A stretch of 64,000 nt of DNA from a virus. A program made the translations under genes and the position numbers. Below are positions 34,332 through 44,028 of this stretch, in pieces. The DNA lies in UHGV virus genome UHGV-2113617; one strand, given 5' to 3'. Every line of letters begins with the position of its first letter. Position 1 is the first letter of the stretch. The notes under the pieces are model-generated. The model saw only the letters and a list, made by a program, of their open reading frames with translations. It did not search any database and had not been told where the DNA came from.

Positions 34332-34634
34332 TTATTTACCTTTAATTACTTTAGCTGCTTCGATAGCCGCTTGCTGAAGGTCATCCATAGACATACCGAA
34401 TTTAGAAGCAAAGTTATCAATTTTCTTTTCGACAGCATTCAAAGGCTTGGCCTGTTTACCTTCATTAGCGCCAGGAAGAGCGAGAATACGTTCTTTGTCA
34501 ATATAAAGGCTTACAAGTTTCTTACGGTCTTTATCGGACAAATCATGAAATGAATGGGCCTTTTTATTTATAGCGGCTTCTAATTTACCTGCACTCACTC
34601 GCGCTTCAGTAATAAATTCTTGATATGTTTTCAT
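34332..34634 (-). CDS. ipII: internal head protein II
   Basis: 100 aa; N-terminal capsid-targeting sequence MKTYQEFITEA; adjacent to ipIII and e as in T4. Confidence 0.8.
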   Translation of the reverse strand: MKTYQEFITEARVSAGKLEAAINKKAHSFHDLSDKDRKKLVSLYIDKERILALPGANEGKQAKPLNAVEKKIDNFASKFGMSMDDLQQAAIEAAKVIKGK

Positions 34635-34742: not shown

Positions 34743-35321
34743 TTAAGAATTACCACGGGCTGCATTAGCAACGGCGTAAGCGTACTGAACATTAGCGTCT
34801 TTAAACGTACCTTTAGAGGTATCTAGTTCTGCCTTAAAGCCGCCTTTAGTCATAACATCGGCAAATTCTTTGCGGAAAGCCATTGCATCAAGGCTTCTCC
34901 ATGACGATTTGTGCTTGGCGAATTCAAGACCAGCGTAGTTGACAGCCTTAGCTAATTTATTATCAATAACCCATTTACCAGCTTTAGGCACAAACACCGG
35001 GCCTTTCTGTTTAGAGAATAGTTTTAAATTCCAGCGACGAAGTTCACCATCAGCTTTAACAAAAGCTGCGTCCAAGTTACTAGCAACAACATCTTGAATA
35101 TGACCAAATTTAAGCCCATCAACTTCAATATTTAGATCGGTGCGCCAGCGAAGTCCTTCCCAAGCGAAAGCTTTAAAGTCGGAAGCTTTTGTAGCTAAGT
35201 ATCGTTCAATAGGAGCTGTTTTAGGGTCAAAGCCGTTTCCTCGGTAAGTCCACTCATCTTTATTAATGCCTTTGGCCTTTTCCACAGAAGCTTCAGCGAT
35301 AAATTCTTTATACGTTTTCAT
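34743..35321 (-). CDS. ipIII: internal head protein III
   Basis: 192 aa; N-terminal MKTYKEFIAEA capsid-targeting sequence; Lys/Ala-rich. Confidence 0.8.
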   Translation of the reverse strand: MKTYKEFIAEASVEKAKGINKDEWTYRGNGFDPKTAPIERYLATKASDFKAFAWEGLRWRTDLNIEVDGLKFGHIQDVVASNLDAAFVKADGELRRWNLKLFSKQKGPVFVPKAGKWVIDNKLAKAVNYAGLEFAKHKSSWRSLDAMAFRKEFADVMTKGGFKAELDTSKGTFKDANVQYAYAVANAARGNS

Positions 35322-40389: not shown

Positions 40390-41055
40390 TTAAAATTTCA
40401 TTTTTCGACCTTTAAACCATCCTTCTGGAATTGGGTCAGTTTTCTTAATACGTTTAGAAACTTTTTCATCTAATGAATGAATCCACATCATACCAAATTG
40501 AGAATTCTTTTCACCTTGTTGGTGTTTATTTCTGGCGTGAGATTCTTTCATTTTATTAATAGTTTCAGGAGTATGGGTCTTACCCAAGAAAGATTTAGTA
40601 TTTAAAAATTTCTCTCTATACTTAGGATTATCCCAAAGCTGTTTAAACCTTTCTGAACCCATTTTACGATATTTTTCTTTAAGGTCTGGGTCGTTCTCAA
40701 ATCTGGTTTTAAAAGCGGCAGCTCCTTTTAAGGAAGCTTCTTTCTTTTTATCCAAATATTCTTTAGTGTTTAAATGGTCCCAACCACCTTCACCACCTAA
40801 TTTCAAATTATAAACATCAGGGCGCTTTAAAAACTCTTCAGTCACAATATTCTTTTCTGACTCAAACATAGAGGTTTTATCGTCAAAGAACTCTAATATT
40901 TCTTTAGAAAAATTTTCTATACCATACTTGTCTTGGGCTCTTTTTAATAATTTACCAGAACCCATATATCCATCATCTAAATTTTCGGTAGAATGAGCGC
41001 CTATGTAGATTTTATTATTAATTTTATTTGTTATTTTATAAATGTAATGGAACAT
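40390..41055 (-). CDS. segB: GIY-YIG homing endonuclease SegB
   Basis: 221 aa; N-terminal HYIYKITNKINNKIYIGAHS (GIY...YIG); located between tRNA-Arg and the 7-tRNA subcluster as in T4. Confidence 0.85.
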   Translation of the reverse strand: MFHYIYKITNKINNKIYIGAHSTENLDDGYMGSGKLLKRAQDKYGIENFSKEILEFFDDKTSMFESEKNIVTEEFLKRPDVYNLKLGGEGGWDHLNTKEYLDKKKEASLKGAAAFKTRFENDPDLKEKYRKMGSERFKQLWDNPKYREKFLNTKSFLGKTHTPETINKMKESHARNKHQQGEKNSQFGMMWIHSLDEKVSKRIKKTDPIPEGWFKGRKMKF

Positions 41056-41668: not shown

Positions 41669-41765
41669 ATTATTAACAAAGGCTCTCAAGCAAGAACCCT
41701 TGATGATAGAGGGTATTAATCAGTGCGATATGAGTTAATAATAACAAATAATTCTTAAAGCATAT

Positions 41766-42053
41766 TTACCATTTATGATAATACATATTTACGATGCATT
41801 CAAGACCCAAAGGATTCTTGAAAATATCATATTCAAGAGGACCTTTTTCTGTTTCAATAAAGAAATCAAAGTTAACTGTGTTAAATTTACGGTCTTCCTT
41901 TACTAATTTAACCTGAGAAGATGAACGGTCAATGTAAACCTTTTCGACTTCAAAACACGTTAAAATGCCATAATCATCAATCAAGGCTTTAGCTGCTTCT
42001 TGATCATATTTATATCCATTTTCAATGGACGATACTTTCGCATAAAGAATCAT
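41766..42053 (-). CDS. hypothetical protein
   Basis: 95 aa ORF between the ipI-locus gene and the tRNA cluster. Confidence 0.55.
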   Translation of the reverse strand: MILYAKVSSIENGYKYDQEAAKALIDDYGILTCFEVEKVYIDRSSSQVKLVKEDRKFNTVNFDFFIETEKGPLEYDIFKNPLGLECIVNMYYHKW

Positions 42054-42055
42054 TA

Positions 42056-42238
42056 TTAACCTTTAGAAATTTTATCCATAGCAATAGCGATTAAACCAAT
42101 TAAAAATGCTACTACAAGTGAAAAAACGTTTTCTGCTGTAGTTAATAATCCGCATATAAATCCAACAAACATTGAAAAACTAAAAGCAGAAGCAGAAATT
42201 GCAATAGCAACATTTCGAATTAATTCACAGCGTTTCAT
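42056..42238 (-). CDS. small membrane protein
   Basis: 60 aa, two hydrophobic helices; GAGGAG SD and promoter 42267-42296 upstream. Confidence 0.5.
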   Translation of the reverse strand: MKRCELIRNVAIAISASAFSFSMFVGFICGLLTTAENVFSLVVAFLIGLIAIAMDKISKG

Positions 42239-42266
42239 TTTATTCTCCTCAGTAGTTGATAGGGTA

Positions 42267-42296
42267 ATAGTATCACTACCCTATCTAAAAGTAAAC
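42267..42296 (-). promoter_or_regulatory. T4-type early promoter with embedded stem-loop
   Basis: Minus strand GTTTACT tttagatagggtagtga TACTAT taccctatc; inverted repeat GATAGGGTA/TACCCTATC brackets the -10. Confidence 0.55.
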
Positions 42297-42530
42297 TTAT
42301 TTTTTACGAAAAATTGATTTATTTTCTGCTGCCCATTTTTCAATAACTGCAGCAGGACCAGTAACAACAATTTTATCGCCGTAATCTTCTGCGGCGAGTT
42401 GACCGAAATTATCTAATGCATCACGAAGAACTCCATGAGGCATTTCACCCATTTTATCTTTCTTACCAGTGTAAATAAACTCAACTTTTACATCAGCCGC
42501 TTCATTGATAAATTCTTTGAAAGTTTTCAT
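42297..42530 (-). CDS. internal head protein, ipI-locus variant
   Basis: From ATG 42530 reads MKTFKEFINEA... (77 aa); at the T4 ipI position next to 57B; the track's 99-aa version includes promoter/UTR sequence. Confidence 0.6.
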   Translation of the reverse strand: MKTFKEFINEAADVKVEFIYTGKKDKMGEMPHGVLRDALDNFGQLAAEDYGDKIVVTGPAAVIEKWAAENKSIFRKK

Positions 42531-42564
42531 TTTGATTTCCATTTGGTTTTGTTTTGATAGGGTA

Positions 42565-42594
42565 ATAGTATCACAACTAAAACTCCATGTAAAC
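42565..42594 (-). promoter_or_regulatory. T4-type early promoter upstream of ipI-locus gene
   Basis: Minus strand cacaaagttGTTTACA tggagttttagttgtga TACTAT taccctatc. Confidence 0.55.
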
Positions 42595-42606
42595 AACTTT
42601 GTGAAA

Positions 42607-43292
<686 letters not shown>

Positions 43293-43302
43293 TATAGTAC
43301 CT

Positions 43303-44028
43303 TTAGTGTATTTTTAGTGTATTTTTAATTTTAGAAAAAAGTTCTTCAAGAGAACCATCGTTTGTAATTACTAAATCACCATCACGAATTGGCAATCCAG
43401 CTTCTGTAATATGTGTATCATTGGATTTTTGACCAGGACGAACTACATGAATTACTGTAGCACCCATCGCCCTAGCCGCATCCATTTCATGATCTTGACG
43501 AGTATCAGGAACGATATAATAATCATAACCTGAGTTAAATTTATCAAGATAATCTAAAGCAAATAATTTTACCCAATACATGCGGTCGAAGTTATTAACA
43601 ATCAAATCCGTACCTAGGGCTTGCATCAGACGACGGACTGACCATTGATCTTCAATATTATTTATAACGTCAATAATCTTGTTACATGCTACGGAATCAA
43701 CTGATTCTTGTCCTTCGTCCTCAAAAACACACACCCCCTTAATTGGGCTTTTACCGTTAAGATAGCAAAATGCTTGTTCCATAATCGTGATTACTTCTGA
43801 TTTAGTCAGATTTAAATTAGTCTCACGATCATAGTCAATTCCTTCAAACTCTTTACGAGTTAAGCAAGGATAGTCGGTGTTTGCTGCAAATACACCCCAT
43901 GCATAAGCCAATGCATCCTTAATAGGACCAGCAAGTTGGTATTTAACTGCAGAATAATTACTCATGATAAAATCAGCAGTAGTATCTTTTCCACTACGCT
44001 TTACACCGCTTAAAAAGATTAGTTTCAT
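43303..44028 (-). CDS. 1: deoxynucleoside monophosphate kinase gp1
   Basis: From ATG 44028 (GAGGAG SD) reads MKLIFLSGVKRSGKDTTADF (P-loop), 241 aa. Confidence 0.85.
   Translation of the reverse strand: MKLIFLSGVKRSGKDTTADFIMSNYSAVKYQLAGPIKDALAYAWGVFAANTDYPCLTRKEFEGIDYDRETNLNLTKSEVITIMEQAFCYLNGKSPIKGVCVFEDEGQESVDSVACNKIIDVINNIEDQWSVRRLMQALGTDLIVNNFDRMYWVKLFALDYLDKFNSGYDYYIVPDTRQDHEMDAARAMGATVIHVVRPGQKSNDTHITEAGLPIRDGDLVITNDGSLEELFSKIKNTLKIH

Follow-up and report, generated by a model that had tools for sequence, protein, structure and literature searches.

The window, i.e., the whole stretch of 64,000 nucleotides of DNA that was analysed, is a Tequatrovirus (T4/T6-like) genome, of which the 24 kb around the gene ip6 share about 96% identity with many T-even phages of Escherichia, Shigella, Yersinia, and Salmonella and are identical to none of them. 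In ascending coordinates, the genes on the minus strand follow each other in the order tRNA-Arg, a GIY-YIG segB-like endonuclease, seven tRNAs, tRNA.2, tRNA.4, ip6, 57B, 57A, gene 1, and gene 3. The gene ip6 fills the slot between 57B and tRNA.4, which in T4 is occupied by ipI (NC_000866), and a preliminary description of this DNA had therefore rightly assigned the gene to the ipI locus. The same slot holds ip6 in all loci inspected, including those of GiZh, ZN18, T6, RB18, VR25, and IME537. The features of the locus are as follows.

41766-42053, minus strand: tRNA.2
42056..42238, minus strand: tRNA.4, the downstream neighbour, a predicted membrane protein of 60 aa (PHROG 1692, E 2.9e-33; so annotated in GiZh, RB18, and T4)
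42256..42296, minus strand: downstream copy of the promoter unit, which is the tRNA.4 promoter (fold -16.4 kcal/mol, z -4.3, 0/200 shuffles as good)
42297..42530, minus strand: coding sequence of ip6 (ipVI), 77 codons plus stop, encoding MKTFKEFINEAADVKVEF...SIFRKK
42501..42530, minus strand: capsid targeting sequence (CTS) MKTFKEFINE, codons 1-10, with the residues F4, F7, I8, and E10
42536..42540, minus strand: Shine-Dalgarno-like GGAAA, 5 nt before the ATG at 42530
42554..42594, minus strand: 41-nt promoter unit, copy upstream of ip6 (direct repeat D1), with a degenerate hairpin (fold -9.4 kcal/mol, z -1.2)
42565..42593, minus strand: early-type sigma-70 promoter TTTACA-17 nt-TACTAT with a TG before the -10 (promoter scan)
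42594..42596, minus strand: TTG of the mechanical 99-aa ORF, abutting the -35 hexamer and judged unused
42607..43062, minus strand: 57B, the upstream neighbour, of the Acb1 anti-CBASS phosphodiesterase family (Pfam PF23474, E 2.6e-60; gp57B in GiZh and RB18)
43659..43666, minus strand: late-promoter motif TATAAATA in gene 1; of such motifs upstream of ip6 on the coding strand, this is the closest (motif search)

Some observations concern the neighbours of ip6. The product of 57B is a clear member of the Acb1 (anti-CBASS 2H-phosphodiesterase) family, yet it is called ‘RNA ligase’ in RefSeq, and this anti-CBASS gene and the injected-protein cassette ip6 are direct neighbours. Downstream, tRNA.3, which encodes about 130-136 aa in T4, T6, RB18, and ZN18, is cleanly absent at 42053-42056, leaving tRNA.4 within 2 nt of tRNA.2; 517 records matched, and in the 10 listed best, this contiguous tRNA.2/tRNA.4 junction is confined to vB_EcoM_G2133. 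The segB-like GIY-YIG homing endonuclease (40390-41055, minus strand, 221 aa) lies between tRNA-Arg and tRNA-Met as in T4 and T6, and matches TIGR01453 with an E of 1e-10, which is below the curated cutoff.

The promoter of ip6 fits the PeSL (promoter-early stem-loop) consensus TTTACW-N17-TAYWAT known from T4 and PST (PMC4122927). According to an alignment, a matching promoter unit is present upstream of T4 ipI, T6 ip5, T6 ip6, and tRNA.4 of the window. The two copies that flank ip6 were detected by the repeat finder as a direct repeat with 80% identity, 298 nt apart. In the downstream unit, a PeSL-type hairpin of 12 bp (at about 42258-42285) extends over the -10; its equivalent in the unit of T4 ipI has 13 bp and a stem of other bases (GAGG/CCTC vs AGGG/CCCT). 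Judged by its sequence, ip6 is a 298-bp cassette bracketed by two early-promoter units. The arrangement resembles PeSL in that a promoter unit lies on both sides of the gene and a strong hairpin covers the -10 of the downstream copy, but it differs in that most of the hairpin has been lost from the copy upstream of ip6. T4-like genomes reportedly undergo modular shuffling by PeSL, as Arbiol in 2010 and Comeau in 2014 are said to have described. PeSL units have been proposed as the mediators of this shuffling (PMC4122927).

The gene content of the slot differs among the compared loci, in agreement with the variability that had been ascribed to the ipI locus beforehand. The window, RB18, and ZN18 have a single ip gene in the slot, so that ip6 of the window has no other ip gene beside it. 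In T6, GiZh, and IME537, ip5 is located upstream of ip6, and the phage teqdroes combines ipI with ip6. In Gaprivervirus UPEC07, RZ, and VR25, four or five consecutive CTS-bearing genes lie between 57B and tRNA.4 (L005:580-1755, L006:580-2034, L013:525-1734), each of which begins with MKT[YF][QN][ET]F except for one starting with MNIKTYNEF; these arrays are much larger than those of Tequatrovirus. The variable combinations of ip genes fit the PeSL shuffling architecture, and the comparison of the loci points to recombination that probably took place at the promoter units.

No late promoter was found adjoining ip6 in the motif search. The nearest such motif is the one in gene 1, and it has a counterpart in T4 gene 1 that is likewise placed 362 nt into the gene. 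A scan of 41700-43400 revealed no terminator-like site, and late transcripts that pass through 57A, 57B, and ip6 might thus originate from the gene 1 motif. T4 ipI likewise has no proximal late promoter, and the lack of one is therefore no argument against packaging of the ip6 product.

In the six-frame ORF list, the longest version of the ip6 ORF extends over 42297..42596 on the minus strand, encodes 99 aa, and starts with TTG, and an in-frame ATG at 42530..42528 (minus strand) leads to a 77-aa protein (MKTFKEFINEAADVKVEFIYTGKKDKMGEMPHGVLRDALDNFGQLAAEDYGDKIVVTGPAAVIEKWAAENKSIFRKK) with the N-terminus MKTFKEFINEA. The ORF coordinates, this N-terminus, and the length of about 77 aa from the credible start had all been given correctly before, as confirmed with the ORF list and the sequence. 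It had also been recognised that the longer ORF begins inside the promoter: the TTG at 42596..42594 abuts the -35 of the promoter at 42593..42565. The first 22 codons of the 99-aa ORF correspond to the promoter and the 5' leader, and in an alignment of upstream regions the DNA of this extension proved to be common to non-homologous ip genes. In the aligned upstream regions of ipI, ip5, ip6, and tRNA.4, G71, G72, and A73 are invariant columns, and an invariant GGA(A) precedes the MKT start (MKR in the case of tRNA.4) by a few bases in T4 ipI, T6 ip5, T6 ip6, and tRNA.4 of the window. Given that the TTG immediately precedes the -35 box and that the GGAAA is positioned for the ATG at 42530, this ATG is, as far as can be read from the DNA, the credible start of ip6, giving 77 aa. 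Another in-frame ATG at 42542 (81 aa, starting with MEIKMKT) overlaps the GGAAA and is not preceded by a separate purine-rich motif. Public annotations of the start disagree: the GenBank record of IME537 has 99 aa from the TTG (L014:1435-1734, 300 nt), some of the protein clusters (P0001-P0003) have 98 or 81 aa, and RefSeq has 77 aa.

Over its entire length, the 77-aa protein fits the profile of PHROG 8111, ‘internal virion protein’ (residues 1-77 against profile positions 1-77 of 77, E 2.2e-51, 173 bits). By sequence, this neighbour of 57B is a complete, ordinary ip6 (ipVI) and belongs to an already known and named family. Using tblastn, ip6 was found in 248 phage records, among them T6, PST, RB18, and VR20/25, with at least 80% of the query covered in every one. 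The protein is 100% identical to that of vB_EcoM_IME537 and 93.5% identical to that of T6, with which it shares the family, the length of 77 aa, and the position between 57B and tRNA.4. Five residues differ between T6 Ip6 and the protein of the window, four of them in the N-terminal propeptide (MKTFKEFINEA in the window, MKTYQEFIAET in T6) and one being a V/I exchange at position 62. A second allele type with 75-78% identity is represented by RB18 and the VR20/VR25 group, and diverged homologues with 31-47% identity that have kept the core motifs occur in Gaprivervirus and Karamvirus. The gene is named ip6 or ipVI in several records, e.g., GiZh, RB18, and VR25 (‘similar to T6 Ip6’), and it is on such GenBank notes that the original naming of Ip6 rests here.

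Two large protein searches were performed, one word-indexed against 5.8 billion proteins and one exhaustive with HMMER against 1.84 billion representatives, and both returned only relatives from T4-like phages apart from one 491-aa NHL-repeat protein. The latter was rejected as spurious, as its score arose from five short stretches that are repeated in it. With Pfam, NCBIfam, and PADLOC, the 77-aa protein yielded nothing, a single PADLOC line (E 0.034, 11 bits) being taken as chance, and a sequence search of the PDB gave 0 matches at E<=10.

The dN/dS of ip6 is 0.28 against RB18, 0.11 against VR25, and 0.11-0.37 across the relatives that differ in protein. In the alignment, K15, L39, E48, G58, I63, and W66 are invariant even when the distant homologues are included. 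AlphaFold2, run with a 9-sequence alignment, predicted a generic ferredoxin-like βαββαβ fold with a mean pLDDT of 86 and a pTM of 0.71; the pLDDT is about 90 for residues 11-77 and 56 for residues 1-10, the low value of the latter being in keeping with a flexible propeptide. Structural comparison of the predicted fold gave no informative match and no functional clue. Because of the 248 records, the dN/dS values, the conserved core, and the confident AlphaFold model, the ip6 ORF is a real protein under purifying selection and not a chance ORF.

Two different views of the gene product have to be weighed against this assignment, the first of which concerns its length. The 300-nt form annotated for IME537 and the database clusters of 98 and 81 aa might be taken to mean that translation really begins further upstream, at the TTG at 42596 (99 aa) or at the ATG at 42542 (81 aa). 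However, the TTG lies directly at the -35 box, the extension consists of promoter and leader DNA that is also found at unrelated ip genes, and the GGAAA is spaced for the ATG at 42530. Moreover, MKT is the start in the PHROG profile, in the RefSeq annotations, and in the distant homologues alike, and an N-terminal extension would bury the targeting sequence, so that we give hardly any credence to a longer product. The other view was put forward in the preliminary description, in which the gene was taken for a short variant of T4 IPI, and it would make ip6 a shortened or diverged ipI allele whose product inhibits a GmrSD variant in an IPI-like manner by means of the same fold. IPI* is an injected head protein that inhibits the GmrSD type IV enzyme of E. 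coli CT596 (PMC3012670). For such an allele speak the same genomic slot, the same upstream promoter unit, and the identity of the first seven residues, MKTFKEF, which are the stretch shared by Ip6 and T4 IPI; the size is similar as well, and the two proteins presumably have the same life history of prohead targeting, gp21 cleavage, and injection. The lengths that had been compared, 77 aa against about 95 aa for IPI, were correct, as T4 IPI has 95 aa in NC_000866, but proteins of the named family to which Ip6 belongs normally have 77 aa, which is therefore not the result of a truncation. When the proposed BLASTP check against T4 IPI was run, only residues 1-14 aligned, and beyond the propeptide no similarity of the mature domain to IPI* was found; the gene thus encodes Ip6 of the separate family PHROG 8111 and not an IPI variant. 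The best PHROG of internal head proteins besides 8111 covers residues 1-20 of Ip6 only, and no profile-profile match between the mature Ip6 and IPI domains was seen. In the phage teqdroes, ip6 adjoins a bona fide ipI, and the two are therefore separate cassettes rather than alleles. Further differences between the two proteins emerge when the propeptides are considered, that of IPI having 19 residues and being cut after ITE and that of Ip6 having a predicted 10. Mature IPI has 76 aa and is basic (pI 9.0), whereas mature Ip6 is predicted to have 67 aa and to be neutral (pI 6.8). In IPI*, two beta sheets are flanked by N- and C-terminal helices, and the ferredoxin-like fold predicted for Ip6 may differ from this. 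Taken together, an ipI allele is highly unlikely. For scale, the mature IPI domain is present in 292 records and the Ip5 domain in about 270 records with at least 90% identity.

Ip6 carries a CTS at its N-terminus. Mutagenesis of T4 IPIII has shown that positions 4 and 7 govern targeting and positions 8 and 10 govern cleavage by gp21, and that the first 10 residues alone suffice to package foreign proteins (PMC9026906). The residues F4, F7, I8, and E10 of Ip6 match the positions set by IPIII genetics, which bears out the targeting-like N-terminus noticed earlier: positions 4 and 7 are aromatic, and positions 8-10 form an I/L-x-E gp21 site. In the family alignment, E6, F7, and E10 are nearly invariant. 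As the I8-N9-E10 motif is the sole [L/I]-x-E site in Ip6, a 67-aa mature form is predicted, which would arise by a gp21 cut after E10 and would have the N-terminus AADVKVEF (AADVKVEFIYTGK), a mass of 7.4 kDa, and a pI of about 6.8. V-K-V-E17 was discarded as a further gp21 site because P3 is occupied by K rather than L/I, because some homologues have Q or D at position 17, and because this stretch forms strand β1. According to its computed net charge of about 0, mature Ip6 is neutral, as opposed to the basic IPI* (pI 9.0), Ip5 (9.2), and IPII-like protein (9.5). The searchable literature, in which the name is shared with inositol hexakisphosphate, yielded neither virion proteomics nor cleavage data on Ip6.

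Two further genes of this kind are located in the window, an IPIII-like gene of 192 aa (35321..34743, minus strand) with the N-terminus MKTYKEFIAE and an IPII-like gene of 100 aa (34634..34332, minus strand) with the N-terminus MKTYQEFITE. By sequence, the phage of the window has ip2, ip3, and ip6 and no ip1, i.e., three such genes within the window. T4 IPII and IPIII have the same 10-residue type of CTS (MKTYQEFIAE) that is cut after E10, but their mature domains are unrelated to Ip6 and the genes lie at another locus, at about 34.3-35.3 kb in the window. A separate observation concerns the nucleotide differences between ip6 of the window and the genes of T6, ZN18, and GiZh, of which 7/10, 7/9, and 6/9, respectively, fall within the first 42 nt (42489-42530, minus strand), the remaining 192 nt being almost identical. 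The CTS codons of ip6 look like a small mosaic or gene-conversion patch, with TTC-AAA as in ipI and ip5 and INEA as in the ip genes of Gaprivervirus.

A homologue of the Ip6 domain that is devoid of a CTS was found in a metagenomic T4-like phage. This protein of 63 aa (P0011, MKAQFIYIGKKDNMGEMPW...) is encoded at L008:3001-3192 on the plus strand of a Logan contig (SRR21291451) and is also present in L009-L011. It is 60% identical to residues 15-76 of Ip6 and acidic, with a pI of 4.5 compared to 6.8 for mature Ip6. Upstream of its ATG, an in-frame stop follows at a distance of 45 nt with no start codon in between. Equipped with a GTTTAC-type promoter and stem-loop of its own, the gene is located between baseplate-like genes and a MotA-like gene, not in an ip locus. 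Since such a free-standing homologue exists, packaging is not an absolute requirement for the Ip6 domain to serve a purpose, and comparison of the two forms suggests that the CTS could be a portable delivery tag that is gained or lost by an otherwise ordinary early protein. For the mature Ip5 domain, a second set of 226 matches with about 52-54% identity was found at another genomic position in many T-even phages, e.g., at 118262-118450 of MN716856.1, which looks like a paralogue outside the ip locus.

We propose that expression of the 77-aa precursor depends on the early-type promoter of ip6 and, in the late phase of infection, probably on read-through transcripts as well. MKTFKEFINE would act as the CTS that brings Ip6 into the prohead scaffolding core, where the gp21 prohead protease would cut after I-N-E(10) and release the small, approximately neutral, ferredoxin-like protein of 67 aa and 7.4 kDa. 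Mature Ip6 would be kept in the DNA-filled head, be injected together with the genome, and act in the next host before phage gene expression. By analogy with T4 IPI, IPII, and IPIII, on which the injection together with DNA is based (PMC12373910), we infer that Ip6 is packaged, cleaved, and injected, and we are quite confident that it is a packaged, processed, and injected member of its family. Of the highly diverged GmrSD type IV enzymes, T4 Ip1, Ip2, and Ip3 each block a specific one (PMC12373910). By the same analogy, Ip6 would most likely bind and block one specific host defence nuclease that attacks glucosyl-hmC DNA, and a role as an injected, pre-made anti-defence protein is probable, though less firmly so than packaging. 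It is uncertain whether the target would be a GmrSD enzyme. When ip4-10 were screened against 15 GmrSD groups, no reproducible inhibition was observed (PMC12373910, Suppl. Fig. 9), the Ip6 allele used there possibly differing from that of the window, and as far as these enzymes are concerned, a GmrSD target thus lacks support. The earlier suggestion that a variant at the ip locus has a different target range appears reasonable by analogy.

With respect to packaging, Ip6 might instead be mainly an ordinary early cytoplasmic protein with an incidental or vestigial CTS, of which little or none is packaged. This would go along with the early type of the sole adjoining promoter and with the occurrence of the CTS-less 63-aa homologue of residues 15-76 as a free-standing early-type gene elsewhere. 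However, the targeting residues are kept throughout the family, including the members with 31-47% identity, and T4 ipI has the same early promoter without a proximal late one and IPI* is nevertheless injected (PMC3012670). As the 10-residue CTS alone also packages foreign proteins (PMC9026906), we hold a mainly cytoplasmic protein to be quite unlikely. It is very unlikely, too, that Ip6 is packaged as a non-specific head component, i.e., a filler for DNA condensation or charge balancing without a dedicated host target, even though the screen of ip4-10 against GmrSD enzymes found no target (PMC12373910) and the fold is generic. Unlike the basic IPI*, Ip5, and IPII, mature Ip6 is approximately neutral (pI 6.8) and so poorly suited to neutralising DNA, its domain is folded and under purifying selection, and the presence of ip6 among close relatives is patchy and interchangeable. 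Furthermore, all three characterised internal proteins of T4 have specific targets (PMC12373910).

More tentatively, it is possible, although on balance doubtful, that injected Ip6 inhibits a host defence outside the tested GmrSD enzymes, maybe even a non-GmrSD one, and that its domain also circulates as a CTS-less early gene. If this were true, T4-like phages would turn early cytoplasmic counter-defence proteins into pre-loaded, injected ones simply by the addition of about 14 codons of CTS and linker, or the reverse. The practical value of the analysis lies in the correct annotation of the gene as ip6, with 77 aa and the start at 42530, which is neither a truncated ipI nor a gene for a 99-aa protein. 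A target is known for only three of at least ten families of T-even internal proteins. As Ip6 is present in about 250 sequenced phages, including T6 and many candidates for phage therapy, its target would be an added host-range determinant, and this importance for the host range would be a property of the Ip6 family as a whole, with nothing in it special to the window.
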